Origin: Pseudonocardia sp.
GTDB taxonomy: Bacteria; Actinomycetota; Actinomycetes; Mycobacteriales; Pseudonocardiaceae
Direction of reading: 5' to 3'
DNA length: 64,000 nucleotides
Assembly (NCBI GenBank): GCA_026785945.1
Contig: JAJAZD010000286.1
Location: 13,063-77,062 of the forward strand
Below are positions 1,306 through 19,893 of this stretch, in pieces. Under the pieces are notes generated by a model, which saw only the letters and a list, made by a program, of their open reading frames with translations, made no database searches and had not been told where the DNA came from. Every line of letters starts with the position of its first letter. Position 1 is the stretch's first letter. Both the position numbers and the translations under genes were made by a program.

Positions 1306-2463
1306 TCAGCCGGAGGTGCCGATCACCGCTGACGGGGCCGACCGGCCGAGAGCCGGCTGTCGATGCGCCACGTTGTAGGCGAGCGAGGTCAGGGCGAACT
1401 CACCGTAGGTCCACGCGCCCGAGTCGGGGTGCCATCTGGTCTCCCCCCGGGTGGGGATCCGTGCGGGGCCGACCTGGGCGTGGTCGCGGACCGGGGTCGT
1501 CCAGCGCATGCGAGTGAAAGTGCGTCCGTCCGGGGAGGAGGCCGCCCTGTCGTCCGACACGAAGTCGACCAGGTCCCCGTCGTCGTCGAACCTCAGTTCG
1601 GCCGTGACGGTGTTGACGCCCAGGGTGAAACGGCCGACCACGCAGTGCGCGTCGACGGGTTGCCAGCTGACGTCGGCCGAGACCAGCGCGCCGGGCGCCA
1701 GGACGCACAGGTCGTTGAAGAGGGTGACCGTCTCGCCGTGGGTGAACTCCGCACCGTCGGCGTCGACCATCGTGACGACCGACAGCAGCCGGACCCGCAT
1801 GGATGCGCCCTTCTCGTCGAAGGCGTGCAGCACGTCGACCGGCAACCCCTTCATCCGGGCGTCCATCTCGAAGAAGCGACAGGGGGTGTCCAGGATGTTC
1901 AGCTGATCCGCGGTGAAGGTCATCCATGCGCTGTCCGGGCCGCTGCGTATCCGGCCGGTCCACCTCGCCCGGAAGTCGTGCACCCGTGGCCGGCCGACCA
2001 CCTCCGCCCGGCGGAGGTAACGCTGGACCGGATCCGGCAGGGGCGCGAGATCGGCCTCGGTGACGTCGCCCTGAGCCGTCCGCGGCCAGGCGTGCTCGAG
2101 GTGGTGGTCGTACTCGGCGCGCAGGCTCAGCGGGCCGCGGGAGGCGAACCCGTAAAGCACCGCCACGAGCAGCAGCACGTTCGCGACGGTGCCGACCAGG
2201 GCATCGGACCAGGACGTGACGATGACGGCCTGCGAGACCAGGACGGCGAGTGCGCCCACCGCCCACCACCGGCGCGGAGCGAGGAACAGCGCGGCCGCCG
2301 CGACGAGGCACAGCAGCGTCGCGGTCAGCCACAGCACCCCGACGGGTTGCGACACGGTCTGGCGCAGCTGCGGCAGGTCCGCGAACCCGAAGGCCTTGGC
2401 GAACCCGAGGAGGTGGATCAGGCCGTGCAGGACGAACAGGGCGGCGACGGCGATCCGGATCAT
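1306..2463 (-). CDS. Membrane-anchored conserved protein (DUF6544-like)
   Basis: 385 aa; N-terminal TM helices, then LAPLPDPVQRYLRRA and a beta-rich domain; ATGA overlap with upstream acyltransferase stop. Confidence 0.65.
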   Translation of the reverse strand: MIRIAVAALFVLHGLIHLLGFAKAFGFADLPQLRQTVSQPVGVLWLTATLLCLVAAAALFLAPRRWWAVGALAVLVSQAVIVTSWSDALVGTVANVLLLVAVLYGFASRGPLSLRAEYDHHLEHAWPRTAQGDVTEADLAPLPDPVQRYLRRAEVVGRPRVHDFRARWTGRIRSGPDSAWMTFTADQLNILDTPCRFFEMDARMKGLPVDVLHAFDEKGASMRVRLLSVVTMVDADGAEFTHGETVTLFNDLCVLAPGALVSADVSWQPVDAHCVVGRFTLGVNTVTAELRFDDDGDLVDFVSDDRAASSPDGRTFTRMRWTTPVRDHAQVGPARIPTRGETRWHPDSGAWTYGEFALTSLAYNVAHRQPALGRSAPSAVIGTSG

Positions 2464-3830
2464 GGTGTTCTCCCGTGGTGATCACTCGGCTGTGTCAGGA
2501 CGCGGAGTTCCTCGTCCACCATCTCCCGCAGTTCGGACAGATCGGGGCAGGTGTCGGGGTCCGCGGCGAGCGTGATCCTGAGGCTGCCGGCATAGGACAG
2601 GACGGCGAAGGCGACCGTCACGTTCCCCGTGGGCGCACTGAGCGGGACGACGGTCGTGATCGGGCAGCCGAGGAACGACAGGCGGGCATCCGGTCCGCGC
2701 AGGTTGCTCACGAAGGTGTGGATCAGCCGTTGACGGTCGACGAACCACCGGTAGAGACCCACCGCCGCCAGCAGGCGGAACAAGGGGCTCAGCAGTGCCG
2801 TCGAGGCGCCGGGCCGGCCCGACCTGGCGGCCCGGGTCGTCGCCGCCAGCGAGATGAGCCGTTCTGCGGGGCCGCCCGCTCCGGCGACGCGCAGGGGAAT
2901 GACTCCGCTCCGGTTGCCCAGGTCGTGTGCCGTGGTGTGGCGCCGGGTGGAGAAGGGCACCGAGATGACGACGTCGTCGATGTGCTCGCCGCGCAGCGCG
3001 AGGAGGCGGTGCAGAGCCGCGGCGACCGCCGACAGGACGACGTCGTTCACCGTGGCGCCGTGCCTATGGGCCGCTGCACGAACCTCGTCGAGGTCGACCT
3101 GGACGCCGGCGAAGCGCCTGCGTGGTCCCGTAGGCCTGTTGAGCGACGATCGCGCCGGTCGCCCGCGCAAGACCGGTCCCAGTTGTGAGGCGCCGCCCCG
3201 CAGGCGTCGCAGAGCCGCCGGGATCCTCCCGGCTCCCCGCAGGCGATCGATCGCCGCCTCGCCGGCGAGATGCCGCCGTGAGGGCATGGGGCGGGGGAAC
3301 GCGGAGTCGTGGGTGTCGGCTGCGCCGTCGACGAGGCCGGCCAGGACGGCCAAGCCGCCGATCCCGTCGGCGAGCACGTGGTGGAACACGATGATCAGCG
3401 CCGAGTCGCCCTGGCCGGTGTCCGTCATCAACCTCGCCGTCCACAATGGGCGATCGCGGGGCAGTCGGGTGACGAGCATGTCGGCCGCAACCGCCAGGAC
3501 GGCGCTCTCACCGCCGGGCGACGGACACGGGACCATGGCGAGGTGGTTGCCGACGTCGAAGTCGCGGTCGTCGACCCACACCGGCCGACCACACCCCCAG
3601 GGAACCTTCACGAGACGTTGGCGCAGGCGCGGGACGGCAGTGATCCGGCGGGCGAGGGCGTGCAGGACGAACTCGGGATCGAGACGCTCGCTCGTGTCCA
3701 GCAGCAGGACCGCCCCGACCTGCATCGGCGTGGACCCGCGCTCGGCGGCGAGAGACATCAGATCGTCGGTGCTCACCCGCTCGGTGCTCACCCGCTCGGC
3801 AGGACGGTGCGTGGACAGCTCCTGACTCAC
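2460..3830 (-). CDS. Wax ester synthase/diacylglycerol acyltransferase (WS/DGAT)
   Basis: PMQVGAVLLLD N-terminus, catalytic HHxxxDG (FHHVLADG), C-terminal FVSNLRGP; GTG at 3830 overlaps ppdK stop (GTGA). Confidence 0.9.
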   Translation of the reverse strand: MSQELSTHRPAERVSTERVSTDDLMSLAAERGSTPMQVGAVLLLDTSERLDPEFVLHALARRITAVPRLRQRLVKVPWGCGRPVWVDDRDFDVGNHLAMVPCPSPGGESAVLAVAADMLVTRLPRDRPLWTARLMTDTGQGDSALIIVFHHVLADGIGGLAVLAGLVDGAADTHDSAFPRPMPSRRHLAGEAAIDRLRGAGRIPAALRRLRGGASQLGPVLRGRPARSSLNRPTGPRRRFAGVQVDLDEVRAAAHRHGATVNDVVLSAVAAALHRLLALRGEHIDDVVISVPFSTRRHTTAHDLGNRSGVIPLRVAGAGGPAERLISLAATTRAARSGRPGASTALLSPLFRLLAAVGLYRWFVDRQRLIHTFVSNLRGPDARLSFLGCPITTVVPLSAPTGNVTVAFAVLSYAGSLRITLAADPDTCPDLSELREMVDEELRVLTQPSDHHGRTP

Positions 3831-6523
3831 GGTTCGTGACTCATGTGGGTGTCGAGCGCGGCGCGGCCCGCCTCCAGGCGCGCGACGGGCACCCGGAACG
3901 GTGAGCAGGACACGTAGTCCAGTCCCTCGCGGTGGAAGAACCCGATGGAGTCCGGGTCGCCGCCGTGTTCGCCGCACACGCCGAGCGCGATGTCCGGACG
4001 GGCGGCGCGGCCCTCCTTCACGGCAATGCTGATCAGCCGGCCGACCCCGTCGATGTCGAGGGTCTCGAACGGTGAGGTCCCGAAGATGCCGCGCTCCAGG
4101 TAGCGGGAGAAGAACGCTCCCTCCACGTCGTCGCGGGAGAAGCCCCACGTGGTCTGGGTGAGGTCGTTGGTGCCGAAGGAGAAGAACTGTGCGGACCCGG
4201 CGATCTGACCGGCGGTCAGCGCGGCGCGGGGCAGTTCGATCATGGTGCCGATCAGGGCGTCGAGCTGGACTCCGTGCAGTTCGGATTCCTCGGTCAGCAC
4301 CGCGGAGGTCTCCTCGGCCACCGTCTGCAGCTCCTGCACGGCGCCGACCAGCGGAATCATGATCTCCGGTCGGACCTCGACGCCGTCGCGGCGCAGTGCG
4401 GCGGCGGCCTGGGCGATCGCGCGGACCTGCATGCCGAACAGTCCGGGTACGACGATGCCCAGCCGCACCCCGCGCAGACCGAGCATGGGGTTCTCCTCGT
4501 GCAGCCGCCGTACGGCGGCCAGCAGCGCCACGTCGAAGCTGTCGGGACTGCCCCGTTCCTCCGCCAGCGCGACCCGCACGGACAGCTCGGTCAGGTCGGG
4601 CAGGAACTCGTGCAGGGGCGGGTCGAGCAGCCGGATCGTGACCGGCAGCCCGGCCATCGCGGTGAAGACCTCGACGAAGTCGGCCCGCTGCAGGGGAAGG
4701 AGCGTCGCCAGTGCGGCGTCGCGCTCGGCGTCGCTGTCGGCCAGCACGAGTCGCTCGACCTGCTCGCGCCGCTCACCGAGGAACATGTGCTCGGTGCGGC
4801 ACAGCCCGATGCCCTCGGCCCCGAACCGCCGCGCCCGGTCCGCGTCCTCGCCGGTGTCCGCGTTCGCCCGTACCGCGAGCCTGCGCGTCTTGTCGGCGTG
4901 GCCCATCAGCCGGTGCACCGCGCGCACCAGCTCGCCCGCGTCGGGGGCCCCGGGGTCCAGGACGCCCTCGAAGTACTCGACGACGGGGGAGGCGACGACC
5001 GCGACCTCGCCCAGGAACACCTCGCCGGTGGTGCCGTCGATGGACAGCATGTCGCCCTCGACGACCTCGATCCCGCCGGGCCCGACGAGCCGCCGGCCGA
5101 CCACGTCGACGTCGAGGTCCTCGGCGCCGCACACGCACGTCCGGCCCATCCCGCGCGCGACCACCGCGGCGTGGCTGGTGCGCCCACCGTGACTGGTCAG
5201 CACACCCTGGGCGGCGATCATCCCCGCGAGGTCGTCCGGGTTGGTCTCGCGCCGCACGAGGATCACCCGCTCGCCCGCCGCCGCCCTGGCCACGGCCGTC
5301 GGGCTGTCGAACACCACCACGCCGGTGGCGGCGCCCGGAGAGGCGTTCATCCCGACCGCGAGGACCGTCGTCGTCGCGTCGGAGGCGAAGCGGGGGAACA
5401 TCAGCTGCGCGAGCTCGGCGCCGGTCACGCGGCGCAACGCCTCGTCGGTGTCGATCAGGCCCTCGTCGACGAGCTGGCAGGCCACCACGAACGCCGCGCC
5501 CGCGGTGCGCTTGCCGACGCGGGTCTGCAGCATCCACAGGGTGCCGCGTTCGATGGTGAACTCGATGTCGCACAGGTCCCGGTAGTGTCGCTCCAGCGTC
5601 GCCATGTTCGCCAGCAGCCCGCGGTAGGAGGCCGGGTCGAGCCGCTCCAGCTCGACGAGGGACAGGGTGTTGCGGATGCCGGCGACGACGTCCTCACCCT
5701 GGGCGTTGGCCAGGTAGTCGCCGTAGACGCCGTGGCTGCCCGTGGCCGGGTCGCGCGTGAACGCCACACCGCTGCCGGAGTCGGGCCCCAGGTTGCCGAA
5801 CACCATCGCCATCACCGTCACCGCGGTGCCCAGGTCGGCGGGGATGCGCTCCCGGCGGCGGTAGGTGACCGCGCGTGGGGCGTTCCAGGACCCGAACACG
5901 GCGCGGACGGTCAGATCCAGCTGCTCGCGGGGGTCCTGGGGGAACTCCCGGCCCGCCCGCGCGACCACCACCGCCTTGAACGCCGCCACGACCGACCGCA
6001 GGTCCGCCGCGTCCAGGCCGAGGTCGTCGGACGTGCCCTTCGCGCGTTTCGCGGCGTCGAACACCGCGTCGAAATGCCCGCCGTCGATCCCCAGCACGGT
6101 CTTGCCGAACATCTGCACCAGGCGCCGGTAGGAGTCCCAGGCGAACCGGTCGTCGTCGGCGATCCGGGCGAGGCCCTCCACCGAGGAGTCGTTGAGCCCG
6201 ACGTTGAGAACGGTCTCCATCATGCCGGGCATCGAGAACTTCGACCCCGACCGCACCGACACCAGCAGCGGGTCGTCGGGGTCGCCGAGGCGCCTGCCCA
6301 TCGCCGCCTGCAGCGCCGCGAGGTGCTCGTCGACCTGACCGGCCTGCGCCGGCGGCTCCACCCCGGACTCCAGATAGGCCCGGCAGGCCTCGGTCGTGAT
6401 CGTGAACCCGGGCGGCACGGGGAGCCCCATGTTGGTCATCTCGGCGAGGTTCGCGCCCTTCCCGCCCAGCAGGACCTTGAGGTCCTTGTTGCCCTCCGCG
6501 AACGCGTACACGTACTTCGCCAT
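3827..6523 (-). CDS. ppdK: Pyruvate, phosphate dikinase
   Basis: 898 aa; LGGKGANLAEM, GGRTSHAAVVARG phospho-His, GIGLCRTEHMF, FFSFGTNDLTQ, GVCGEHGG. Confidence 0.97.
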   Translation of the reverse strand: MAKYVYAFAEGNKDLKVLLGGKGANLAEMTNMGLPVPPGFTITTEACRAYLESGVEPPAQAGQVDEHLAALQAAMGRRLGDPDDPLLVSVRSGSKFSMPGMMETVLNVGLNDSSVEGLARIADDDRFAWDSYRRLVQMFGKTVLGIDGGHFDAVFDAAKRAKGTSDDLGLDAADLRSVVAAFKAVVVARAGREFPQDPREQLDLTVRAVFGSWNAPRAVTYRRRERIPADLGTAVTVMAMVFGNLGPDSGSGVAFTRDPATGSHGVYGDYLANAQGEDVVAGIRNTLSLVELERLDPASYRGLLANMATLERHYRDLCDIEFTIERGTLWMLQTRVGKRTAGAAFVVACQLVDEGLIDTDEALRRVTGAELAQLMFPRFASDATTTVLAVGMNASPGAATGVVVFDSPTAVARAAAGERVILVRRETNPDDLAGMIAAQGVLTSHGGRTSHAAVVARGMGRTCVCGAEDLDVDVVGRRLVGPGGIEVVEGDMLSIDGTTGEVFLGEVAVVASPVVEYFEGVLDPGAPDAGELVRAVHRLMGHADKTRRLAVRANADTGEDADRARRFGAEGIGLCRTEHMFLGERREQVERLVLADSDAERDAALATLLPLQRADFVEVFTAMAGLPVTIRLLDPPLHEFLPDLTELSVRVALAEERGSPDSFDVALLAAVRRLHEENPMLGLRGVRLGIVVPGLFGMQVRAIAQAAAALRRDGVEVRPEIMIPLVGAVQELQTVAEETSAVLTEESELHGVQLDALIGTMIELPRAALTAGQIAGSAQFFSFGTNDLTQTTWGFSRDDVEGAFFSRYLERGIFGTSPFETLDIDGVGRLISIAVKEGRAARPDIALGVCGEHGGDPDSIGFFHREGLDYVSCSPFRVPVARLEAGRAALDTHMSHEP

Positions 6524-6605
6524 GTCACTCTCCTCCAGATGGGCGTACCCGTTCCGCGACGCGACCCGCGCTGACGATCCTCGCCGCGCCGCGCGGGCGG
6601 AGGCA

Positions 6606-6641
6606 GGGCCCTACGGCCCCGTCGGGGCGGCGGAAGGACCC
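6606..6641. promoter_or_regulatory. Pair of DosR/DevR-like boxes upstream of ppdK
   Basis: GGGCCCTACGGCCC (6606-6619) and revcomp GGGTCCTTCCGCCG (6628-6641), 22 bp apart. Confidence 0.55.
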
Positions 6642-7101
6642 CGTTCCCGCGTCGGGCGTCGCCGGGACAGCAGGGCGCCGCCGACGGCCGACACCGCGAT
6701 CGTCACGAGGGACGCGCCGATGATCGCCGCGGCCTGCCCGGCGTCGAGCACGCCCTGGGCCAGCCCGATGGACACCACGGCCGACGGCACGCCGAGCGCC
6801 GCCGTCGCCAGCAGCCCGACCGCCGGCGGGCGCCGGAGCACCACCGCGACGAGCACGTGGACGGTGACGGCCGCAGCGACCAGCCCGCCCAGCAGGAGCA
6901 GCGCCCGGCCGGAGCCGAGCAGTGCGGCGAGCTCGAGCCGGGCGCCGAGCGTCACGAAGAACAGCGGCACGAAGAACCCCTCCGCGACCCCGACGAGCTG
7001 CTGGGCGAGCCGGTGCGGCCGGGCCGTGCAGGACCGGTATCGCGATCGCGGCCGACGGCCAGCCCGGCGGCCACGACGAGGGCGAGCAGCCCGAAGGTCA
7101 C
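6611..7101 (-). pseudogene. Cation:proton antiporter remnant, internally deleted
   Basis: N-terminal VTFGLLALVVAAG in one frame and C-terminal EGFFVPLFFVTLGARL in another; about 490 bp of a ~1.2 kb gene. Confidence 0.7.
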
Positions 7102-7163
7102 CCCCGCATGGTGCCGGGCGCGGGCCCGGTTCGGTGGCCGGACCCGCGACGACAAAGGGGTAC

Positions 7164-7177
7164 GGGACTTTCGCCCC
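7164..7177. promoter_or_regulatory. DosR/DevR-like box upstream of USP operon
   Basis: GGGACTTTCGCCCC. Confidence 0.6.
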
Positions 7178-7334: not shown

Positions 7335-7844
7335 ATGGACGGGATCAGCAGGGTGGTGGTGGGCGTCGACGGGGCGCCCGGGTCGCGAGCGGCTCTGGAG
7401 CACGCCCTGCACGACGCGGCGCGCCGGCAGGCCCGGCTGCGGGTGGTCGCGGTGGTGCCGTTGCCCGCCTACTGGGTGGCGGCCTACGGAGTGGGCGTGC
7501 CACCGCCCTCCGCCGAGGTCGTCGCGGAGGTGCAGGCCGCGGTGCTGCGGATGGTGGAAGAGGTGGTGGCCACACACGCGGATCTTCTCGGCCGGGTGCC
7601 GGTGGCGGTCGTGGCCACGGTCGGCAACCCGGCCGAGGCGCTGCTGGAGGCATCGCGGGACGCCGACCTCCTCGTACTGGGTCACCGGGGCCGGGGCGCG
7701 TTCACCAGTGCCGTGCTCGGATCGGTGGGCCTGCACTGCGTCCTGAACGCCGCGTGTTCGGTGACGATCGTGCGGCCGGCGGCGGAGTCCGCGGTCCCGG
7801 AATCGGTGCCCGTGGGCGCGACGGCCGTACCGGTGCCGGCGTGA
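7335..7844 (+). CDS. Universal stress protein (single USP domain)
   Basis: RVVVGVDG...LLVLGHRGRG..LGSVG..VTIVR; GGAG RBS before ATG 7335. Confidence 0.92.
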   Translation: MDGISRVVVGVDGAPGSRAALEHALHDAARRQARLRVVAVVPLPAYWVAAYGVGVPPPSAEVVAEVQAAVLRMVEEVVATHADLLGRVPVAVVATVGNPAEALLEASRDADLLVLGHRGRGAFTSAVLGSVGLHCVLNAACSVTIVRPAAESAVPESVPVGATAVPVPA

Positions 7845-8554
7845 GCGGGCCGACCGTGCACCGCACGGTGGTCGGCGACATCATGACCATCACGGTGCTG
7901 TCCGTCGGACCCGCGACGGCGGTCACCGAGATCGCGGTGGTGCTCTACGCCGGGGCGGTGCGCGCGGTCCCGGTCCTCGACGAGGAGGGCAGGCTGCTCG
8001 GCGTGGTCTCCGAGGCCGACGTGCTCGCGACGCTGCCGGATACGGCCCCCGGCGAGGACCACCCCTGGTGGCGCCATCGCCCGCGGCACATCCACCGCAC
8101 GCCGCCGCCACCGAAGGTCGGGGCCGGGACAGCGCGGGGGCTCATGACGGAATCCGTGATCACGGTAGGCGCGACGGCGACGGTGACGAGCGCGGCGCGG
8201 ACGATGCGCGAGCACGGTCTGAGCTGGCTGCCGGTCGTGGACGCCGACCGGCGGGTGGTCGGCGTGCTCAGCCGCTCCGACCTGCTCGCGGTGTTCCTGC
8301 GGGGCGACGACGCGATCCGCACCGAGGTCGTCGACGAGGTGCTGGGCCGGATGGTGCTCGTCGAACCGGCGCGCGTCGACGTCGACGTGGTCGACGGGGT
8401 CGTCACGATGACCGGGGAGGTCGACACCCGGGTCGACGCCGTGCTCGCGGTGCGCTTCGTCGAGCGTCTCGAGGGTGTGGTCGAGGTGGTCGACCATCTG
8501 AGCTTCCGGGTGGACGACCGTGACGCCACCCTCGACATCGCCCCGCTGTACTGA
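7841..8554 (+). CDS. CBS-pair + BON domain protein
   Basis: Two CBS motifs (VPVLDEEGRLLGVVSEADVL; LPVVDADRRVVGVLSRSDLL) and C-terminal BON (VVDGVVTMTGEV); GTGA overlap with USP. Confidence 0.88.
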   Translation: MSGPTVHRTVVGDIMTITVLSVGPATAVTEIAVVLYAGAVRAVPVLDEEGRLLGVVSEADVLATLPDTAPGEDHPWWRHRPRHIHRTPPPPKVGAGTARGLMTESVITVGATATVTSAARTMREHGLSWLPVVDADRRVVGVLSRSDLLAVFLRGDDAIRTEVVDEVLGRMVLVEPARVDVDVVDGVVTMTGEVDTRVDAVLAVRFVERLEGVVEVVDHLSFRVDDRDATLDIAPLY

Positions 8555-8583: not shown

Positions 8584-9305
8584 TCATGACTCCGGGAGGG
8601 TCCGGGCGACGAGGTCGACCAGGTCGACGGTCCGCTGCGCGTAGCCCCACTCGTTGTCGTACCAGCCGAAGATCTTGGCCGTGCTCCCGACGACCCGGGT
8701 CAGCCCGGCGTCGAAGAGGCACGAGGCCGACTCGCCGATCACGTCGTGGGACACGACGGGATCGGTCGTGTACCGCAGGATGCTCTTGAGGGGTCCGTCG
8801 GCGGCGGTCTGGAACGCCCGGTTGATCTCCTCGGCGGTGGCGGGTCCGGTGAGCCGGACGGTCAGGTCGACCAGCGACCCGTCGACCACCGGGACGCGCA
8901 CCGCGATGCCGTCGAGCCGCCCGGCGAGCCGGGGGAGCACCTGACCGATGGCCCGCGCGGCGCCCGTGGTGGTGGGGATGATGTTGACCGCCGCGGAGCG
9001 GGCGCGGCGCATGTCCTTGTGCGGCCCGTCGAGCAGGTTCTGGTCGGAGGTGTAGCTGTGGATCGTGGTGAGCAGGCCCTCCTCGATCCCGAACGCCTGG
9101 TCCAGGACCAGCGCCATCGGCGTCGCGCAGTTCGTCGTGCACGAGGCGTTGGAGACGATGTGGTGCGCCGCGGCGTCGTAGACCTCCTGGTTGATCCCCA
9201 TCACGACGGTGGCGTCCACGTCCGTGCCCGGTGAGGTCAGGACCACCTTCCGCGCACCCGCGGTGAGGTGGGCGGTGGCGCGCTCGCGGGTGCGGAACCG
9301 GCCCG
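8584..9305 (-). pseudogene. gap: Type I glyceraldehyde-3-phosphate dehydrogenase lacking the first ~90 residues
   Basis: GRFRTRERATAHLTAGARKVVL, catalytic SNASCTTNC, WYDNEWGY; in-frame TAG just upstream (~9323) and no NAD-binding GFGRIG motif. Confidence 0.85.
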
Positions 9306-9308
9306 AGG

Positions 9309-9322
9309 GGGGCTTTCGCCCC
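9309..9322. promoter_or_regulatory. DosR/DevR-like box at the gap breakpoint
   Basis: GGGGCTTTCGCCCC, 13/14 identical to the box at 7164. Confidence 0.55.
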
Positions 9323-9480: not shown

Positions 9481-9930
9481 GTGAGCTCACCGGGAGCGGG
9501 ACGCGCACCGCAGCGGCCGGTCGTCGCCCACCGGTTCTTCCTGGCAGTGCTGCGCTCTCCGCTCGGTCGCCCGTTCGGCGGCATGTGCGAGCTGCGGTTC
9601 GTGGGGCGCGTCTCGGGCCGCTCGATCACCCTGCCCGTCCAGTGTGCTCGTGAGGCGACGCGGCTGGTGATCTACGTCGGTCGCTCGGCAGACAAGCAGT
9701 GGTGGCGCAACTTCCTCGGCGGCCGCGGTGTGCAGGTGCGCGTCGGCGGGGTCGACCACCGCGGACACGGTCGTGTCATCGACGGCTCCCATCCCGATCG
9801 CCCGGAGGTCGAGCAGGCCTACCGCCGCCGCTTCCGGAACGTCCAGGTGGCACCGACCGATCCGATGGTGGTCATCGATCTCGCGGCGGCAGACGCCCAC
9901 CCCTCTGCCCACCGGGACCCGTCGCACTGA
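9481..9930 (+). CDS. Deazaflavin-dependent nitroreductase/quinone reductase-like split-barrel protein
   Basis: VLRSPL..GRVSGRSITLPV...KQWWRNF motif; GTG 9481. Confidence 0.65.
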   Translation: MSSPGAGRAPQRPVVAHRFFLAVLRSPLGRPFGGMCELRFVGRVSGRSITLPVQCAREATRLVIYVGRSADKQWWRNFLGGRGVQVRVGGVDHRGHGRVIDGSHPDRPEVEQAYRRRFRNVQVAPTDPMVVIDLAAADAHPSAHRDPSH

Positions 9931-10717: not shown

Positions 10718-11497
10718 TCAGCCGGTGGCGACCGCGGGGTCGAGCAGCCCGTAGTTCCCGTCGTGGCGGTGGTAGATCACGTTGGCCCGTCCGCCGTCGC
10801 GGTCGCGGTAGAACAGGAACGGAAGTCCGGTCATCCGCAACCGGTCCACAGCCTCCTGCGTGTCCAGGACGGGGGCCGGGTGCGGGCTCACGGTGAGATC
10901 GACGGCGTGCGGTCCGGCCGCGGTGAAGCCGCCACCCACCCGCGCGAGCTGCAGGCCCGTCGGACCGTCCCGGTAGACCACGGCGTCCTGCCCACTGCCC
11001 GCTTCGACGAAGAGGTGGAAGTCGAGATCGAGGTCGTCCATCTCGACGACGGCGTCGTCGACGGTGCACTCCTGTGGACTGATCGTGGGGTGCCGGACGA
11101 TCTCTCGCTCCACCGGCTCGCCTGCATCGGCGGCTCGTTCGTGTGCGTCGCGAAGGTTCGCCCGGTCGTGGCCCTGCCCCCGGTCGTGAGACATCCGCTC
11201 CAGCCGGTGGTCCAGGCGCTCGACGAGCATGTCCACCGCCTCGCGAGGCTTCGTGGCCGCCACGTGTACCTGTACCGGCACGCCGTCGAGATCCACGGTG
11301 GCCGCCGCGGTGATCGGCCGTTCCCGCGCGGGATCCCCGTACCGCTCGATCCAGACGTGCACCCGCAGTACCGCGCGTCCGGTGTGCCGCAGCACCCCGG
11401 CGATCTTCAGTTTCGCGTAGTCCGCGAGGTCCGCGGCGATCTCGCCGCGCAGCTCGACCACGGCCTCGCGCATGACCCGTTCCTGTGCTTGATCCAC
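10718..11497 (-). CDS. HPF/RaiA-like protein with tandem sigma-54 modulation/S30EA C-terminal domains
   Basis: N-terminal HPF-like region, two MDDLDLDFHLF / MTGLPFLFYRD repeats, terminal IYHRHDGNYGL. Confidence 0.82.
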   Translation of the reverse strand: MDQAQERVMREAVVELRGEIAADLADYAKLKIAGVLRHTGRAVLRVHVWIERYGDPARERPITAAATVDLDGVPVQVHVAATKPREAVDMLVERLDHRLERMSHDRGQGHDRANLRDAHERAADAGEPVEREIVRHPTISPQECTVDDAVVEMDDLDLDFHLFVEAGSGQDAVVYRDGPTGLQLARVGGGFTAAGPHAVDLTVSPHPAPVLDTQEAVDRLRMTGLPFLFYRDRDGGRANVIYHRHDGNYGLLDPAVATG

Positions 11498-11526: not shown

Positions 11527-11540
11527 GGGACAGAGGTCCT
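11527..11540. promoter_or_regulatory. DosR/DevR-like box upstream of HPF-like gene
   Basis: GGGACAGAGGTCCT, near-perfect GGGAC-N4-GTCCC. Confidence 0.6.
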
Positions 11541-11662: not shown

Positions 11663-11676
11663 GGGACCTTCAGCAC
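11663..11676. promoter_or_regulatory. DosR/DevR-like box upstream of adhP
   Basis: GGGACCTTCAGCAC, with half-site TTCGTCCC ending at 11653 (23 bp earlier). Confidence 0.55.
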
Positions 11677-11793: not shown

Positions 11794-12807
11794 ATGAGAG
11801 CCGCCGTCGTCACCGATTTCCGCAAGCCGTTGGAGCTGCAGGAGCTGCCGGTACCGGAGCCGGGCCCGGGTCAGGTGCTGGTCCGCATCGAGACCACCGG
11901 CCTGTGCCACACCGACATCCATGCCGCGCACGGTGACTGGCCGGTCACGCCGAAGCCCCCGTTCATCCCCGGGCACGAGGGGATCGGCCGCATCGAGGCT
12001 CTCGGGACCGGGGTGAGTACCCGCGCGGTCGGCGATCGGGTGGCGATCGCGTGGCTCGCCGGTGCCTGCGGTCGGTGCCGCCACTGCATCGGCGGCTGGG
12101 AGACGCTGTGTGAGAGCCAGCAGAACTCCGGATACTCGGTCGACGGCACCTTCGCCGAGTACACGGTCGTCGCCGCCGCGTTCGCGACACCGGTGCCCGA
12201 GACCATCCCCTCCCGCGACGCCGCCCCGCTCACCTGCGCAGGCGTCACCACCTACAAGGCGATCAAGGTCGCCCGGCTGGAACCGGCCGAGACGGTGGCG
12301 GTCTTCGGTGTCGGCGGGCTGGGACACCTCGCCCTGCAGTACGCCCGCATCGCCGGGGGTTTCGTGATCGGCGTCGACGTCGAGGCCGACAAGCTCGCGA
12401 TGGCGACCGAACTCGGCGCCGACCACGTGGTCGACGCCGCGACGACCGATCCCGTGGCCGCGATCCACGCCCACGGCGGCGCCGACGTGGCGCTCGCGCT
12501 CGCCGCCTCACCCGAGTCCTTCGACCAGGCGTTCCGGTCGCTACGTCGCGGTGGCCGGCTGGTGTGCGTCGCGATGCCTGCGGACGACGGCGTCGTGACC
12601 CTGCCGATCTTCGACACGGTGGTCAACGGGAAATCGGTGATCGGCTCGATCGTCGGCACCCGCAACGACCTCGCCGACGTCTTCGCCCTTCACGCCGCCG
12701 GGCGCACCCGGGTGATCACCGTCGCCCGCCCGCTCGAGCAGGTCAACGAGGCCATCGACGACGTGCTGGCCGGTCGCGTCCAGGCGCGCGTGGTCTTCGA
12801 CCTGTAG
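11794..12807 (+). CDS. adhP: Zn-dependent alcohol dehydrogenase (AdhP type)
   Basis: GLCHTDIH, GHEG, structural CGRCRHC..C, GVGGLG. Confidence 0.93.
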   Translation: MRAAVVTDFRKPLELQELPVPEPGPGQVLVRIETTGLCHTDIHAAHGDWPVTPKPPFIPGHEGIGRIEALGTGVSTRAVGDRVAIAWLAGACGRCRHCIGGWETLCESQQNSGYSVDGTFAEYTVVAAAFATPVPETIPSRDAAPLTCAGVTTYKAIKVARLEPAETVAVFGVGGLGHLALQYARIAGGFVIGVDVEADKLAMATELGADHVVDAATTDPVAAIHAHGGADVALALAASPESFDQAFRSLRRGGRLVCVAMPADDGVVTLPIFDTVVNGKSVIGSIVGTRNDLADVFALHAAGRTRVITVARPLEQVNEAIDDVLAGRVQARVVFDL

Positions 12808-12878
12808 CCGGCCCATCCGACGTCGCTCACCCCGCGGATGCCGGGTGCGTCGCGCCGGCGGCTCCGTCGCGTGCCGGC

Positions 12879-13211
12879 CTACGTGCGGGTGGCCACGGTG
12901 AGCAGCACCGCGGCGTCCTCGAGCGCTTCGAGCGCGTGCCGGGTGCCGGGCACCACGAGGAGGTCGCCGGGGGAGCCCTCCCAACCCTCGTCCCCGGCGA
13001 CGAGACGCACCCGCCCGTGCAGCACGTGCACCGTGGCCTCCCCGGGGCTCTCGTGCTCGTCGAGCTTCCGTCCGGCGGCCAGCGCGATGACCGTCTGGCG
13101 CAGGACGCGTTCGTGGCCGCCGAACACGGTCTGCGCGCTCCGCCCACTGGACGCCGTCCTCGCGATCTTCAGCTGTTCCCTGGCCAGCGCGGTCAGCGAC
13201 GACTTCTTCAC
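12879..13211 (-). CDS. Small cupin-domain protein
   Basis: LRQTVIALAAG..LDEHESPGEATVHVLHG..HALEALED; GTG at 13211. Confidence 0.85.
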   Translation of the reverse strand: MKKSSLTALAREQLKIARTASSGRSAQTVFGGHERVLRQTVIALAAGRKLDEHESPGEATVHVLHGRVRLVAGDEGWEGSPGDLLVVPGTRHALEALEDAAVLLTVATRT

Positions 13212-13326: not shown

Positions 13327-13932
13327 TCAGGCAAGGAACCGGAACCGTTCGACGATCGGGAGGCGCTCCCACGTCCTGCCCAGTCCGAGGGTCCGGCCGG
13401 CACCGACGAGGACGAGGATCCCCAGGAGCATGGCGTAGATCAGGTGGTCGTCCATGAACGGGTTGGTGGCGGGCGGCAGGACCGCGGTCCACATGAGGAA
13501 CAGTAGCACCGCACCGGAGACCGCCGCGATGCGCATCGCGATGCCGAGCATGAGGGCGACCCCGATGCCGAGCAGGCCGATCATGAACAGCCAGTCGGCC
13601 CACGCCGCACCGGCGATCGAACCGTAGGCGTCGGCGAAGGGACCCTGCGTGGCGTTGCCCAGGAAGCCCTTGGTCGGCGACCCGCCGTTGAGCCAGGCGG
13701 CATCCCCGAAGACGGCGACGGCGCCGGTCTCCTTGTCGCGGCCGGTGGCGAAGCCGAGAGCGAAGGTCTTGTCGATGAACGCCCAGAGGAACACCCACCC
13801 GATGCTCAGCCTCGTGACGGCGGCGAGGTAGCGCAGCGCCGTCCGCGATGTCGGCCCGGTCCCCGGGTGGATGGACGGCGTGGCCTCCGTGCTCGGGACT
13901 GAGGTTCTCCTGCTCGGGACTGCGGTGCTCAT
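13327..13932 (-). CDS. DoxX/DoxD-family membrane protein
   Basis: RLSIGWVFLWAFIDK, GSPTKGFL, NPFMDDH. Confidence 0.85.
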   Translation of the reverse strand: MSTAVPSRRTSVPSTEATPSIHPGTGPTSRTALRYLAAVTRLSIGWVFLWAFIDKTFALGFATGRDKETGAVAVFGDAAWLNGGSPTKGFLGNATQGPFADAYGSIAGAAWADWLFMIGLLGIGVALMLGIAMRIAAVSGAVLLFLMWTAVLPPATNPFMDDHLIYAMLLGILVLVGAGRTLGLGRTWERLPIVERFRFLA

Positions 13933-14037: not shown

Positions 14038-14074
14038 GAGCTGAACGTCCCGAGGCGGCGGGGTCGAAGTGCCG
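14038..14074. promoter_or_regulatory. Pair of DosR/DevR-like boxes upstream of doxX
   Basis: revcomp GGGACGTTCAGCTC (14038-14051) and CGGCACTTCGACCC (14061-14074), 23 bp apart. Confidence 0.5.
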
Positions 14075-14107
14075 GACCTGGCCCGGACCGGCGGGTGTCC
14101 TCCCGGT

Positions 14108-14926
14108 TCAGAGGACGGTCAGGCCGTGGGAGCGGAACCGGTCCTCCACGCGCTCCACCAGCTCCTGCGACGGCGGGGCGTGGGCCCCCAGCTGGTAAGG
14201 GAGCCCGAGCTCGGCCCACTTGCCCGCACCCAGGTGGTGGAACGGCAGGACCTCCACCCGATCGACGCCGTCGAGGGTGGCGACGAACGCGGCCACCGCC
14301 TCGACGTTCTCGGGCGCGTCGGTGAGTCCCGGCACCAGCACGAAACGCACCCACATCCGGTTGCCCCGGTCCGACAGCCGGCGGGCGAAGCGCAGCGTCG
14401 GTGCGAGGTCCGCGCTGGTGACCAGGCGGTAGGTGTCGGGGTCGCCGGACTTGATGTCGAGCAGGAACAGGTCGACCAGGTCGAGGAACTCGTCGGTGGC
14501 CCGGTCGCCGAGGAACCCCGAGGTGTCCACGGCGGTGTGCAGCCCGAGGTCGTGGCGGCAGCGGCGCAGCAACGCCTCCAGGAACCGGATCTGCAGCATC
14601 GGTTCGCCGCCGCTGACGGTGATCCCGCCGTGCGCGGTGGTGACGAACGCCGCGTACTTCGCGATCTCGTCCACCATCCGTCCCGTCGTGACCCGGCGGC
14701 CGTCGCCCATCGTCCACGTGTCGGGGTTCTCGCAGTACTGGCAGCGCAGCGGGCACCCGGACAGGAACAGGGTGAACCGCACGCCGGGCCCGTTGACGGC
14801 GCCGGTGATCTCGTAGGAGTGGTAGTAGCCGATCTCCGGGTCCCCCTCCTGCGCCAGCTCCGCCTCGAGCTCGGCCCGCGACCCGCCGTGACGCTCGCGC
14901 ACCGGCGTGATCGGGAGCCGGCGCAT
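14108..14926 (-). CDS. pflA: Pyruvate formate-lyase activating enzyme (radical SAM)
   Basis: CPLRCQYC (CxxxCxxC), [15 protein letters not shown]; TGATG overlap with pflB. Confidence 0.93.
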
Positions 14927-17229
14927 CAGAGCGAGCCGTGGAACGTGCGGTGGATGACGTCGAGCTGTTGCTCCCGGGTGAGCCGCACGAAGTTCACCGC
15001 GTACCCGGACACCCGGATGGTCAGCTGCGGGTAGCGCTCGGGGTGCTCCATGGCGTCGAGCAGGGTGTCCCGGTCGAGCACGTTGACGTTGACGTGGAAA
15101 CCGTGCGCGCCGAAGAAGCCGTCGAGGATGCCGGTGAGGTTCTCGACCTGCTCCGCCGCGGTCTTCCCCAGTGCGGTCGGCACGAGGTTGCTGGTCAGCG
15201 AGATGCCGTCGCGCGCCTGGTCGTAGGGCAGCTTGGCGACCGAGAGCGCCGAGGCCACCCAACCGTGCCGGTCGCGCCCGTTCATCGGGTTCGCACCGGG
15301 GGAGAAGGGCTCGCCCGAGCGGCGGCCGTCGGGGGTGTTCCCGGTGGCCTTGCCGTAGACCACGTTCGAGGTGATCGTCAGCACCGACTGGGTGTGGGTC
15401 GCCCCGCGGTAGGCGCGATGGCGGCGGATCTTCTCCATGAACCGTTCCACCAGCCCGACCGCGATGTCGTCGACGCGGTCGTCGTTGTTGCCGTACGCCG
15501 GGTAGCTACCCTCGATCCGATAGTCGACGACCAGACCGGTGTCGTCGCGGACGACCGTGACGCGGGCGTCCCGGATCGCGGACAGGCTGTCGGCGGTGAC
15601 CGCCAGACCAGCGATGCCCATCGCCATCGTGCGGTGCACCGGGTGGTCGTGCAGCGCCATCTCGATGCGCTCGTAGGCGTACTTGTCGTGCATGTAGTGG
15701 ATGACGTTGAGCGCGTCGACGTAGACACGGGCGAGCCAGTCCATCTCGACGTCGAGCTTGGCCAGCACGTCGTCGTAGTCGAGCAGGTCTCCGGTCACGG
15801 GCGCGGTGGGCACCGCCACCTGCAGGCCGCTCTTCTCGTCGCGCCCGCCGTTGATGGCGTAGAGCAGCGTCTTCGCCAGGTTGACCCGGGCGCCGAAGAA
15901 CTGCATCTGCCTGCCGAGGGTCATCGCCGAGACGCAGCACGCGATGGCCGTGTCGTCGCCGGTCACGGGGCGCATCAGCTCGTCGGACTCGTATTGGATG
16001 CTGCTCGTGTCGATCGAGGTCCGGGCGGCGAAGTCCTTGAAGCCCTGGGGCAGCGCCGGCGACCACATCACGGTGAGGTTCGGCTCCGGGGCCGGGCCCA
16101 GGTCGTGCAAGGTCTGCAGGAAGCGGAACGAGCTGCGCGTCACCAGCGTCCGTCCGTCGGCGCCCATGCCGCCGATGCACTCGGTCACCCACGTCGGGTC
16201 GCCGGAGAACAGGGCGTCGTACTCCGGGGTGCGCAGGAAGCGGACGATCCGCAGCTTGATCACGAAGTCGTCGATCAGCTCCTGGGCGCGCGACTCGTCG
16301 ATGCGGCCGTCGTCGAGGTCACGCTGCAGATAGATGTCGAGGAACGTCGACGTGCGCCCCAGCGACATCGCGGCGCCGTTCTGCTCCTTCACCGCGGCGA
16401 GGTAGCCGAAGTAGAGCCATTGGATCGCCTCCTGCGCCGTGCCGGCCGGGCCCGAGATGTCGAACCCGTAGGAGGCGGCCATCTCCCGCAGTTCGCCCAA
16501 GGCCCGGATCTGCTCGGCCAGCTCCTCCCGGTCGCGGATGACGTCCTCGCTCGAGGGCAGCGCGTCGAGCGAGGACTTGACGAGCTGCTTGTCCGCGACG
16601 AGCCGGTCGGTCCCGTAGAGGGCGACGCGGCGGTAGTCGCCGATGATGCGGCCACGCCCGTAGGCGTCGGGGAGGCCGGTGATGATGTGGGAGCGCCGGG
16701 CCGCGAGAATCTCCTCGGTGTAGGCGTCGAACACCCCGTCGTTGTGGGTCTTGCGGTACTTCGTGAAGATCTCCGCGACCCGCGGGTCGACCTCGTACCC
16801 GTAGGTCCGAAGGCTTGTCTCGACGACGCGCCAGCCGCCGTTGGGCATGATCGCGCGGCGGAGCGGGGCGTCGGTCTGCAGGCCGACGATCAGCTCGGCG
16901 TCCCGGTCGATGTAGCCGGGGGCGTGCCCGGTGATCGACGCCGGGGTGTGCGTGTCGATGTCGTGGACGCCCCGCGCGCGTTCCTGCGGGAACAGCGCCG
17001 TCATGCGCGCCCACAGGGCCGTCGTCCGGTCGGTGGGTCCGGCCAGGAACGACGCGTCGCCCTCGTAGGGCGTGTAGTTGTCCTGCAGGAACTGTCGGGG
17101 GTCGATCGAGCCGCGCCAGCCCTGCCCCCGGAAACCGCGCCACGGATCTCCCGCGCGGGTGTCTCCCGACGGGTGGCGGTCGGTGGCGCTCCTCGGCCCG
17201 GGGACAGGGCTCCGCACGGTCTGGGTCAT
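14926..17229 (-). CDS. pflB: Pyruvate formate-lyase (formate C-acetyltransferase)
   Basis: 767 aa; catalytic IACCVS, glycyl radical [15 protein letters not shown]. Confidence 0.97.
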
Positions 17230-17265
17230 GGTCCGATCCTCGCCCGCCGGCCCGGGCCGGCGACA

Positions 17266-17371
17266 GAGCAGAAGGTCCCGGGTGGGCCGGCCGATGTGCC
17301 ACCGGTGAACCGGGCGGAGGCCGCGACGCCGGTAGGCCCCGCTGACCCGTTCCCGACGGGACCTTCGCCGG
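17266..17371. promoter_or_regulatory. Divergent pflB/phosphoketolase promoter with DosR/DevR-like boxes
   Basis: revcomp GGGACCTTCTGCTC (17266-17279) facing pflB; GGGACCTTCGCCGG (17358-17371) followed by -10-like TATCGT facing xfp. Confidence 0.6.
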
Positions 17372-17457
17372 TATCGTATGACCCGGCCCGTGGGAGAGGC
17401 TTCCTCCGGGAGCGCCCCGTGTCGCCTTCACCGCCCGGCCCACCTGAGGAGTCACCC

Positions 17458-19893
17458 TTGCCCGACACCGACACCGCCACGGCGCCCGACACCGACACGG
17501 CGCCCACCCGGGCCGTCAGTCGCCGCGACCTCGAGCTGATCGACGCGTATTGGCGGGCGGCGAACTACCTGTCGGTCGGACAGATCTACCTGCTCGACAA
17601 CCCGTTGCTGCGCGAGGCGCTGCTCGCCGAGCACGTCAAGCCCCGCCTGCTCGGGCACTGGGGTACGACACCGGGGTTGAACCTGCTCTACGCGCACATG
17701 AATCGGGTCATCCGGCAGCGTGACCTCGACGCGCTGTACGTGACCGGGCCGGGCCACGGCGGGCCCGGATTGGTGGCCAACGCCTACCTCGAGGGCACCT
17801 ACAGCGAGGTGTACTCCTCGATCGGGCGTGACGAGGACGGGATGCGCGCGCTGTTCCGGCAGTTCTCCTTCCCCGGCGGCATCCCCAGCCACGTCGCCCC
17901 CGAGACACCCGGGTCCATCCACGAGGGCGGCGAGCTCGGCTACGCGCTGGTGCACGCCTTCGGTGCGGTGTTCGACAACCCCGACCTGCTGGCGCTGTGC
18001 GTGGTGGGCGACGGGGAGGCGGAGACCGGGCCGCTGGCTGCGAGCTGGCACTCGAACAAGTTCCTCAACCCCGCGACCGACGGCGCCGTGCTGCCGGTGC
18101 TCCACCTCAACGGCTACAAGATCGCCAACCCGACGGTCCTGGCCCGCATCCCCGAGTCCGAGCTCGCCGCACTGATGCGCGGTTACGGCTATGAACCGCA
18201 CTTCGTCGGCGGCGAGGGTGCCGGGGGCGACGACCCCGTGGCCGTCCACGAGCGGCTCGCGGCCACCCTCGACGAGGTGCTCGACGACATCGCCGCGATC
18301 CAGGACGCGGCCCGCGTCGGGCAGGCTCCGGCCGTGCGCCCGACGTGGCCGATGATCGTCCTGCGCACCCCGAAGGGCTGGACGGGCCCCAAGGAGGTGG
18401 ACGGCCTACCGGTCGAGGGCACCTTCCGTGCCCACCAGGTGCCGGTGGCCGCCACCCGCAGCAACCCCGAGCACCGCGCGCTGCTCGAGCAGTGGCTGCG
18501 CAGCTACCGGCCCGAGGAGCTGTTCGACCCGACCGGGCGGCTGGTCCCGGAGCTGGCGGCGCTCGCGCCGGAGGGCGCCCGGCGGATGAGCGCCAACCCG
18601 CACGCGAACGGCGGACGTCTCCTGCGGGACCTGCGCATGCCCGACTTCCGCGACCACGCCGTGGCCGTCGACCGTCCCGGTGTCGGATCCAGCTCGGCCA
18701 CCGGCGTGCTCGGCGGGTTCCTGCGCGACATCATCGTGCGCAACCCCGAGACGTTCCGCATCATGGGCCCCGACGAGACGGCGTCCAACCGCCTCTCCGC
18801 CGTGTTCGAGCAGACCGACCGGGCCTGGAACGCCGAGATCCTTCCCGGTGACGACCATCTCGCGCCGGACGGGCGGGTGATGGAGGTGCTGTCCGAGCAC
18901 CTGTGCCAGGGCTGGCTGGAGGGCTACCTGCTCACCGGTCGCCACGGCCTGTTCAACTGCTACGAGGCGTTCATCCACATCATCGACTCGATGTTCAACC
19001 AGCACGCCAAGTGGCTCAAGACCACCAACCACATCCCGTGGCGGGCCCCGATCGCTTCGCTGAACTACCTGCTCACCAGCCACGTCTGGCGTCAGGACCA
19101 CAATGGACTGTCCCATCAGGACCCCGGGTTCATCGACCACGTGGTGAACAAGAAGGCGGAGGTCGTCCGCGTCTACCTGCCGCCGGACACCAACACCCTG
19201 CTGTCGGTGGCCGACCACTGCCTGCGCAGCCGCCACTACGTCAACGTCATCGTGGCCGGGAAGCAGCCTGCGCTGACCTACCTGACCATGGACGAGGCCA
19301 TCGCGCACTGCACCCGCGGGCTCGGGATCTGGCCGTGGGCCGGCACCGCCGACACGGACGCGGCCTACAGCGACCCCGACGTGGTGCTCGCCTGCGCCGG
19401 GGACACCCCGACGATGGAGACCGTGGCCGCGGCGGACCTGCTGCGCACCCACCTGCCCGGGCTGCGGGTGCGGGTCGTCAACGTCGTGGACCTCATGCGG
19501 CTCGAACCCGACACCGAGCACCCGCACGGGCTGTCCGACCGCGACTTCGACGCCCTGTTCACCGTCGACAAGCCGGTGATCTTCGCCTACCACGGCTACC
19601 CGTCGCTGATCCACAAGCTCACCTACCGGCGCACGAACCACCGGAACATGCACGTGCGCGGCTACAAGGAGGAGGGCACGACGACCACGCCGTTCGACAT
19701 GGTGATGCTCAACGACCTCGACCGTTTCCGGCTCGTCATGGACGTGATCGACCGCGTCCCGTCGCTGGGCAGCCGGGCCGCGACCCTGCGGCAGCAGATG
19801 TCCGACGCCCGCCTGAGCGCCCGCGCCTACACGCGCGAGCACGGCGAGGACGACCCGGCGATCGCGGGATGGACGTGGCCGGGACCGAACTGA
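17458..19893 (+). CDS. xfp: Phosphoketolase (XFP family)
   Basis: [26 protein letters not shown], ThDP GDGEAE..LNGYKI, QDHNG; TTG start after GAGGA. Confidence 0.95.

Follow-up and report, generated by a model that had tools for sequence, protein, structure and literature searches.

Introduction

Can an actinomycete of aerobic type keep an oxygen-independent fermentation within its hypoxia response? The question is raised by positions 1306–19893 of a 64,000-nucleotide stretch of Pseudonocardia sp. DNA (GenBank assembly GCA_026785945.1, contig JAJAZD010000286.1, here C286, positions 13,063–77,062 of the forward strand; the whole stretch analyzed is hereafter called the window), where the genes for pyruvate formate-lyase (PFL; pflB) and its activating enzyme (pflA) stand in one cluster with those for phosphoketolase (XFP; xfp), pyruvate, phosphate dikinase (PPDK; ppdK), a zinc alcohol dehydrogenase (ADH; adh), a universal stress protein (USP; usp), a triacylglycerol/wax ester synthase (WS/DGAT) and a ribosome hibernation factor (HPF). 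Soil actinomycetes are regarded as strict aerobes, yet they must outlast waterlogged, oxygen-free spells, and two survival routes have been documented among them: hydrogen-evolving fermentation in Mycobacterium smegmatis and nitrate respiration in Streptomyces. A preliminary description of the locus, made from its letters and open reading frames, had seen in it a hypoxia and fermentation island. The present analysis leads us to conclude that the cluster is probably the Pseudonocardia version of the actinomycete DevR(DosR)/OsdR hypoxia–dormancy neighbourhood, with its PFL module intact and working as proposed below. The hypoxia-regulon part of this reading is well supported in silico, while the fermentation scheme is one that we infer from the predicted enzymes.

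An intact PFL module

Judged by profile score and motif, PflB and PflA are predicted to be equivalog-level members of the pyruvate formate-lyase system with their catalytic motifs intact: PflB keeps the active-site motif CCVS at residues 431–434 and the glycyl-radical motif RVSGY at residues 739–743. The pflB gene is under purifying selection, with 29 synonymous and 14 non-synonymous codon differences from its counterpart on a 98.5%-identical contig. The genome is that of a Pseudonocardia, its RecA and ATP synthase beta both belonging to 90%-identity clusters that consist of Pseudonocardia proteins. The source assembly (G000) totals 4.46 Mb over 380 contigs, with a completeness of 95%. An assembly chimera is excluded because four independent metagenome contigs, with a nucleotide identity of 98.5–99.4%, keep the same gene order. 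The intact genes of the cluster are conserved across these four contigs.

Promoter boxes and a DevR/DevS-type regulator pair

Sites of the DevR/OsdR type were sought with the strict pattern GGGNCNWWNGNCCC, which covers both OsdR and DevR sites, the expectation being taken from the shuffled window. The window contains three such boxes, as against 0.5 expected, a number reached in 1 of 100 shuffles, and all three lie in promoters of the cluster, namely those of ppdK, of usp–cbs and of a truncated glyceraldehyde-3-phosphate dehydrogenase gene (the gap remnant). The half-box pattern GGGACYTTC occurs four times in the window (0.87 expected), again always in cluster promoters: one site precedes usp, another adh, and the remaining two share the 228-bp spacer between the divergent pflB and xfp genes. 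Together with its 3' flank, the half box preceding xfp corresponds to the same 15 bases upstream of the xfp orthologue in the relative G019. The textbook core GGGACN4GTCCC, searched with one mismatch allowed, is uninformative alone, since eight sites were found in the window versus 9.6 expected. Genome-wide, there are 29 strict boxes, six of them on this 80-kb contig; 21 are intergenic according to our own gene calls, which leave about 21% of the genome intergenic. In S. coelicolor, OsdR recognises AGGGCCGATCGGCCCT, which conforms to the DevR site, and an OsdR site lies at –102 of ppdK (PMC5069765).

The putative regulators are encoded on contig C102. The product of C102:10090–10746 scores 247.6 bits against M. 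tuberculosis DevR (3C3W), is about 60% identical to it and has the same recognition helix, AEKTVKNYVS. The adjoining gene (C102:10771–12435) specifies a kinase with a GAF-GAF-HisKA_3 architecture, the first GAF domain of which scores 185.7 bits against the haem-GAF domain (GAF-A) of DosT. On these similarities, the two proteins are assigned as clear DevR and DevS/DosT orthologues. The devR gene is itself preceded, at 95 nt, by a strict box, and the genes around the pair (C102:5201–13702) code for a tandem USP, an Acg-type nitroreductase, an NmrA-like protein and a P-type ATPase. Genes for a lactate permease and a GlcD-type oxidase come next at this locus.

The comparison with other genomes points in the same direction. 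In 10 of 26 other actinomycete loci, the 450 nt preceding pflB contain a strict box, the density of strict boxes upstream of pflB being 0.82 per kb versus 0.062 per kb over the whole loci; such a box is also found upstream of pflB in three further relatives (G004, G040 and G042). In the Pseudonocardia genomes G019 and G087, the same box precedes homologues of rafH, cbs-bon, doxX and usp. The DosR-type hypoxia–dormancy neighbourhood supposed in the preliminary description is thus supported at the sequence level by the regulator orthologues and the promoter boxes, and by an overlap in content with the known DosR and OsdR regulons that takes in RafH, the Tgs-type WS/DGAT, USPs, the CBS protein, ppdK and adh.

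One could argue, conversely, that PFL stands outside the DevR response, in a rearranging and partly decaying accessory region, and answers another cue or serves a different end, for example the supply of formate to C1/purine metabolism or formate assimilation. Such an account would fit the presence of nothing more than half boxes before pflB in this genome, the three pseudogenes and several indel polymorphisms inside the cluster, the scrambled synteny with other Pseudonocardia, where xfp of G019 is 1.7 Mb from ppdK, and the dissimilar surroundings of the other PFL loci of the genus. It does not square with the full boxes upstream of pflB in the other actinomycetes just described, with the occurrence of both half boxes within a 228-bp spacer when 0.87 sites are expected per whole 64 kb, or with the PFL-fragment transcripts that track osdR in S. 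lividans (PMC6302529). We therefore consider it unlikely that PFL is unconnected with DevR.

Distribution and phylogeny of PFL

Among 81 sampled genomes of the genus, the window's own counted in, PPDK was found in 63 (at E ≤ 1e-50, a count that takes in weaker paralogue matches), XFP in 52 and PFL in five. The other PFL copies of the genus are at most 73% identical to that of the window, and one of the five, in G017, is frameshifted. At G017:C44:71251–73501 (loci L005–L009 and L091/L092), both pflB and pflA are broken into several frames. These frameshifts show that PFL loss is under way within the genus.

The nearest PflB sequence (78% identity) comes from another family of the order, and the nearest ones in named genomes belong to Planomonospora, Streptomyces, Streptacidiphilus, Kitasatospora, Sphaerisporangium and Dactylosporangium (72–77% identity). 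A maximum-likelihood tree unites all the actinomycete PflB sequences in a single clade (support 93/90), apart from the Firmicute and Proteobacterial sequences; within this clade, the PflB of the window pairs with that of G034, a member of another family of the order (100/99), and Pseudonocardia G004 falls in the other subclade. The orthologues of PPDK and XFP in G019 are 87–89% identical to those of the window, but their genes lie far apart there, as mentioned above.

The neighbours of pflBA recur in other actinomycete genera, where they include USPs, CBS-BON proteins, ADH (62% identity), PPDK (66%), XFP (67%), RafH and DoxX-like proteins, the latter adjoining pflBA in four Streptomyces loci; gap is full-length in these other actinomycete loci. 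The Pseudonocardia pflBA carriers G004 and G017, on the other hand, have no neighbours in common with the locus studied here. At L019 (Kitasatospora sp. NPDC048540) and L021 (Streptomyces xiangluensis), xfp is within 1.5–5 kb of pflB, with the order xfp–doxX–pflB–pflA in L021; the XFP–PFL pairing thus recurs in two other genera. PFL is consequently not the exception in an aerobic actinomycete that it had been taken for, many Streptomyces, Kitasatospora, Planomonospora and Dactylosporangium carrying it in the same context.

Read from these sequences, PFL looks to be an old module, patchily kept or exchanged within the phylum, that has repeatedly landed in DevR-type neighbourhoods. More specifically, pflBA can be described as a predicted optional module of the regulon: few Pseudonocardia carry it, it recurs in other mycelial actinomycetes, and in S. 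coelicolor and S. lividans it has decayed.

Gene content of the cluster

In the window, whose GC content is about 72%, genes were called via codon-position GC bias and named via Pfam and NCBIfam. The features of the cluster and the boxes in its promoters are listed in Table 1. All the genes named in the preliminary description are present, and pflB, pflA, xfp, ppdK and the genes for the WS/DGAT, the AdhP-like ADH and the HPF are intact; its list lacked the DUF6544 gene, the Na+/H+ exchanger remnant and the frameshifted NAD(P)-binding fragment. Four-base overlaps between starts and stops define three operons, ppdK–ws/dgat–DUF6544, usp–cbs/bon and pflB–pflA.

Table 1. Genes, gene remnants and DevR/OsdR-type promoter sites of the cluster (window coordinates; strict, match to GGGNCNWWNGNCCC)
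Feature	Position	Strand	Remarks
DUF6544/DUF6920 protein	1306–2463	-	PF20181, 234.7 bits; last gene of ppdK operon; start overlaps WS/DGAT end by 4 nt
WS/DGAT, Tgs-type triacylglycerol/wax ester synthase	2460–3830	-	PF03007 + PF06974; HHVLADG motif; GTG start overlaps ppdK stop
PPDK	3827–6523	-	TIGR01828, 1241.6 bits (cut-off 843); three PPDK Pfam domains
DevR/OsdR-type box GGGCCCTACGGCCC	6606–6619		83 nt upstream of ppdK; strict
Na+/H+ exchanger C-terminal remnant	6611–6970	-	Pseudogene; PF00999 partial, profile positions 247–364 of 375
DevR-type box GGGACTTTCGCCCC	7164–7177		171 nt upstream of usp; strict
USP	7335–7844	+	PF00582, 79 bits
CBS-CBS-BON protein	7841–8554	+	PF00571 + PF04972; GTGA overlap, operon with usp
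GAPDH paralogue, 5'-truncated (gap remnant)	8584–9246	-	Pseudogene; TIGR01534 positions 120–330 of 330 only
DevR-type box GGGGCTTTCGCCCC	9309–9322		63 nt upstream of gap remnant; strict
115-aa open reading frame, weakly Ddn-like (deazaflavin-dependent nitroreductase)	9583–9930	+	TIGR00026, 24.8 bits (cut-off 46); called gene in relatives
NAD(P)-binding (NmrA/SDR-like) fragment	~9962–10550	+	Pseudogene in two frames; PF13460, 40.6 bits, N-terminal part only; codon-position GC frame change
RafH-type dual-domain HPF	10718–11497	-	PF16321; PDB 8WHX match
Box-like site GGGACAGAGGTCCT	11527–11540		30 nt upstream of rafH; one mismatch to GGGACN4GTCCC
Half box GGGACCTTC	11663–11671	+	131 nt upstream of adh
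AdhP-like zinc ADH	11794–12807	+	NF006940, 321.6 bits, just below cut-off 344; PF08240 + PF00107
Small cupin	12879–13211	-	PF07883 (Cupin_2), 27.8 bits (cut-off 27.2)
DoxX/DoxD-like membrane protein	13327–13932	-	Named after homologues
PflA, PFL activating enzyme	14108–14926	-	TIGR02493, 298.4 bits (cut-off 231.75); CxxxCxxC as CPLRCQYC
PflB, PFL	14926–17229	-	TIGR01255, 1146.7 bits (cut-off 994.2)
Half box GGGACCTTC	17271–17279	-	42 nt upstream of pflB
Half box GGGACCTTCgccggt	17358–17366	+	~100 nt upstream of xfp
XFP	17458–19893	+	NF003619, 1463.9 bits (cut-off 962); three XFP Pfam domains; divergent from pflB

Some of the assignments can be refined. The protein first described as HPF-like matches M. 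smegmatis RafH (PDB 8WHX) with an E value of 1.1e-51, residues 18–255 of 259 being aligned with residues 9–256 of 264, and is best interpreted as a full-length RafH orthologue, distinct C-terminal domain included. The WS/DGAT scores 287 bits against TIGR02946, slightly below the cut-off of 310, and the CBS-CBS-BON protein has a weak match to Rv2626c (47.9 bits). Two other identifications hold in part. The open reading frame previously read as an F420-type reductase does exist, its identity being weak at the score given in Table 1; the protein called DoxX has more than 6000 homologues, the source names of which are DoxX family or thiosulfate dehydrogenase [quinone] large subunit, and no match to a Pfam or NCBIfam profile.

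Three members of the cluster are remnants. The gap gene, already recognized as such in the preliminary description, has lost its NAD-binding domain: tblastn alignments with intact paralogues end at about position 9306, and the same queries detected no N-terminal GAPDH piece upstream of the remnant. This remnant is deleted further in near-identical metagenome contigs, in which, moreover, the Na+/H+ exchanger remnant is about 425 bp longer and 299 bp of the NAD(P)-binding fragment are missing. Indels relative to loci L103–L106 (98.5–99.4% identity) map to window positions 6873–7056, 8713–9285, 10055–10354, 21626–22380 and 23064–24261. Inside the cluster, they concentrate in the three remnants, which are therefore true pseudogenes at different stages of decay. 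An intact gap gene, preceded by a box, is present elsewhere in the genome, on contig C358. The NmrA-like protein encoded on C102 was considered as the parent of the frameshifted NAD-binding fragment and rejected on comparison.

Extent and chromosomal setting of the cluster

The segment to the left of the window (C286:1–13062, that is, window positions –13061 to 0) contains cydDC, cydB, cydA, three tandem-USP genes, a flavodoxin_5 gene and an alpha/beta hydrolase gene, with strict DevR-type boxes at C286:7646, 8716 and 9250. Given these cyd and USP genes and the three boxes, the hypoxia cluster begins at or before the end of the contig. To the right of xfp lie housekeeping genes (a DksA-type zinc finger gene, dinB and aroQ). 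A gene for a 722-aa protein without a Pfam family (C286:12078–14246; window part 3–1184) adjoins the cluster on the left and is convergent with the DUF6544 gene.

Is the cluster a recent genomic island from a fermentative bacterium? The term island in the preliminary description invites this view, as do the scarcity of PFL in the genus (5 of 81 genomes) and the provenance of the nearest PflB, 78% identical and from another family of the order. Yet the GC content is 0.70–0.745 throughout the segment, the same as in the flanks, the third-position GC of pflB is native-like (0.95–0.96), no integrase, tRNA or repeats were found at the borders of the segment, the PflB of the window belongs to the actinomycete-specific clade, and G019 possesses closely similar PPDK and XFP orthologues. 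Because the composition is native, the borders are bare and the PflB phylogeny is actinomycete, we reject the mobile-island view, and recent acquisition of this kind appears highly improbable: the cluster is a native chromosomal neighbourhood. A tRNA gene at window positions 57601–57675 is followed by a stretch of 53–61% GC extending to 63300; this is a separate integrated element, unconnected with the hypoxia cluster, and no other tRNA or low-GC element is present.

Respiratory and fermentative genes elsewhere in the genome

The genome encodes Pta (contig C4) and AckA (contig C305), as well as cytochrome bd, COX2 (C350) and COX3 (C287). No match to COX1 was obtained in the assembly, and the motif GHPEVY is missing from all six frames, while COX1 is present in at least one copy in all 12 relatives checked. 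Since COX2 and COX3 are there, the missing COX1 is probably an assembly gap. An aerobic-type host in which PFL is not core, as had been assumed at the outset, agrees with the cytochrome bd, COX2 and COX3 genes and with the PFL count in the genus.

A different explanation starts from the same genes: the lineage might be a facultative anaerobe or microaerophile, a genome-reduced Pseudonocardia that grows at low or zero oxygen by means of PFL, XFP, PPDK and cytochrome bd and whose species core includes this set. The genome size, which is small for a genus ranging from 2.6 to 10.3 Mb, the conservation of the cluster at 98.5–99.4% in four separate metagenome assemblies, the purifying selection on pflB and the failure to find COX1, as opposed to its presence in the relatives, are all compatible with that scenario. 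However, the simplest account of COX1 is that an assembly of 380 contigs and 95% completeness, which contains COX2 and COX3, has a gap there, the neighbours of pflB are of the dormancy type (RafH, USPs and the Tgs-type WS/DGAT) and not of the growth type, no formate channel was found, and an anaerobic ribonucleotide reductase was not established. Hence, we regard a growth-related role in a facultative anaerobe as improbable and retain the dormancy neighbourhood as the preferred interpretation.

The genome contains a second box-marked cluster, at C358:9096–15899 and C75:15006–20894, the two contig ends appearing to join. It holds genes for a zinc ADH, the intact GAPDH, two Acg-type nitroreductases and a hyc-like cluster in the order NuoB-like, HyfB, HycD, HyfE, HyfF and HycE-like, which we take to be that of M. 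tuberculosis Rv0082–0087. The [NiFe] ligand motifs are absent from the HycE-like large subunit, which has SGDTSVGH in place of the cysteine motif and no C-terminal cysteine pair; the complex thus looks like a hydrogenase-related assembly predicted to be unable to bind nickel–iron, and with these ligand motifs absent, no formate hydrogenlyase activity is claimed for it.

A proposed hypoxia response and its assessment

Our working scheme is as follows: (i) on a fall in oxygen, the C102-encoded haem-GAF kinase would phosphorylate its partner, the DevR orthologue; (ii) phosphorylated DevR would bind boxes of the type GGGAC(C/T)TTCG(C/G)CCC in the cluster promoters and turn on ppdK–ws/dgat–DUF6544, usp–cbs/bon, rafH, adh, doxX–cupin, pflBA and xfp; and (iii) the products would let a respiring organism keep its ATP and redox balance without oxygen. 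In this scheme, PflA would activate PflB once oxygen is gone, and pyruvate would be converted to acetyl-CoA and formate with no NADH made. The phosphoketolase would turn sugar phosphates directly into acetyl-phosphate, and Pta and AckA would convert acetyl-CoA and acetyl-phosphate to acetate and ATP. PPDK may run glycolytically toward pyruvate, recovering ATP from AMP and PPi, while ADH and triacylglycerol synthesis would take up reductant, RafH would park and stabilise idle ribosomes, and cytochrome bd would scavenge leftover oxygen.

The mixed fermentation module of the preliminary description survives to the extent that PFL, ADH, XFP and PPDK are intact; it is weakened by the lack of an identifiable FocA-type channel and by the pseudogene status of gap. 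Nor was a source of acetaldehyde for the ethanol branch found, although no search aimed at an acylating acetaldehyde dehydrogenase was made. Several observations weigh against the cluster being a working hypoxia–fermentation neighbourhood. First, the 29 strict boxes of the genome do not exceed the roughly 35 extrapolated from the window shuffle (0.5 per 64 kb). Likewise, a symmetrised 20-nt weight matrix built from 17 seed sites does no better than a first-order Markov control, with 27 sites versus about 21 at 14 bits; at 16 bits, 17 sites, which is the number of seed sites, compare with about 9 in the control. Because the genome-wide number of boxes shows no excess, the regulatory case is built on the position of the boxes and on the cross-genome comparison. 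Second, the pflB, xfp and adh sites are perfect in one half only. Third, the DevRS pair and the cluster are on different contigs. Fourth, neither a FocA-type formate channel nor a formate dehydrogenase partner was identified in the genome. Finally, the pseudogene status of three cluster members shows that parts of the neighbourhood are dispensable.

A broader proposal can be put forward tentatively. The DevR/OsdR switch might directly induce PFL in mycelial actinomycetes that are nominally obligate aerobes (Pseudonocardia, Streptomyces, Kitasatospora, Dactylosporangium and others) and, with XFP, Pta/AckA and PPDK, PFL could form a redox-neutral acetate-plus-formate fermentation sustaining ATP under anoxia. 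Such a fermentation would make up an ancestral branch of the dormancy regulon that M. tuberculosis lacks and of which S. coelicolor keeps fragments; in it, formate would leave or be used by a route other than FocA, possibly via the DoxX-like protein or the hyc-like complex. The intact PFL, the promoter boxes and the recurrence of the neighbourhood in many genera point to formate/acetate fermentation as a third survival route next to hydrogen evolution and nitrate respiration, one that is testable in cultured carriers such as Streptomyces acidiscabies ATCC 49003, Planomonospora parontospora JCM 3093 and Dactylosporangium sucinum JCM 19831.

Comparison with known systems

The regulator, the box and most of the members are already known, DevR/DosR-type hypoxia clusters being familiar in mycobacteria and Streptomyces, and the gain is therefore incremental. 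In the literature, we found no paper on an intact pflBA–xfp set tied to a DevR box, beyond a passing listing in S. lividans, and nothing linking PFL with Pseudonocardia.

With the enterobacterial and Firmicute focA–pflB–pflA system, the Pseudonocardia locus shares the pflB–pflA operon and the enzyme families, and Pta and AckA are encoded in the genome. It differs in that the FocA channel is lacking and no AdhE was seen, in that control is predicted to operate via DevR-type boxes and not via FNR/ArcA, and in that the host genus is aerobic.

To our knowledge, the DosR(DevR)–DosS/DosT regulon of M. tuberculosis and M. smegmatis includes neither PFL nor a phosphoketolase, and Berney et al. 2014 reportedly found that M. 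smegmatis sheds reductant via hydrogenases. This regulon and the Pseudonocardia system have in common a like regulator, about 60% identical and with the same recognition helix, a haem-GAF kinase, a Tgs-type WS/DGAT, USPs, a CBS protein (Hrp1 in mycobacteria) and RafH, which is DosR-regulated in M. smegmatis and stabilises idle ribosomes there (PMC3390679). Further genes resembling mycobacterial ones, for Acg-type nitroreductases, a CtpF-like ATPase and the hyc-like cluster ordered as in the Rv0082–0087 operon, are found elsewhere in the Pseudonocardia genome. Whereas the mycobacterial regulon is scattered, the Pseudonocardia genes are clustered.

The cluster has its Streptomyces counterpart in the OsdK–OsdR island of S. 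coelicolor and S. lividans (SCO0167–SCO0219), likewise of DevR type, with the palindrome GGGNC-N4-GNCCC at about –80 to –160 (PMC5069765). The island shares with the Pseudonocardia cluster ppdK (SCO0208), a zinc ADH (SCO0199), USPs, a CBS protein (SCO0209) and a DoxD-like protein (SCO0201). Unlike the island, the Pseudonocardia cluster has full-length pflB and pflA with intact radical and cluster motifs, a phosphoketolase gene divergently paired with pflB, and RafH and WS/DGAT genes inside the cluster; its regulator pair is outside the cluster, on another contig, the stretch contains no nitrate reductase, and its box consensus is nearer to the mycobacterial left half (GGGACC/T). PFL remnants have been listed in such a cluster before: among the S. 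lividans transcripts that track osdR are those of ppdK, adh and Gap3, of USPs and of CBS and DoxD-like genes, along with a 'putative pyruvate formate-lyase' and a fragment of pflA designated a pseudogene (PMC6302529). A link between PFL and DevR would explain why PFL fragments are present inside the OsdR island of S. coelicolor and S. lividans.

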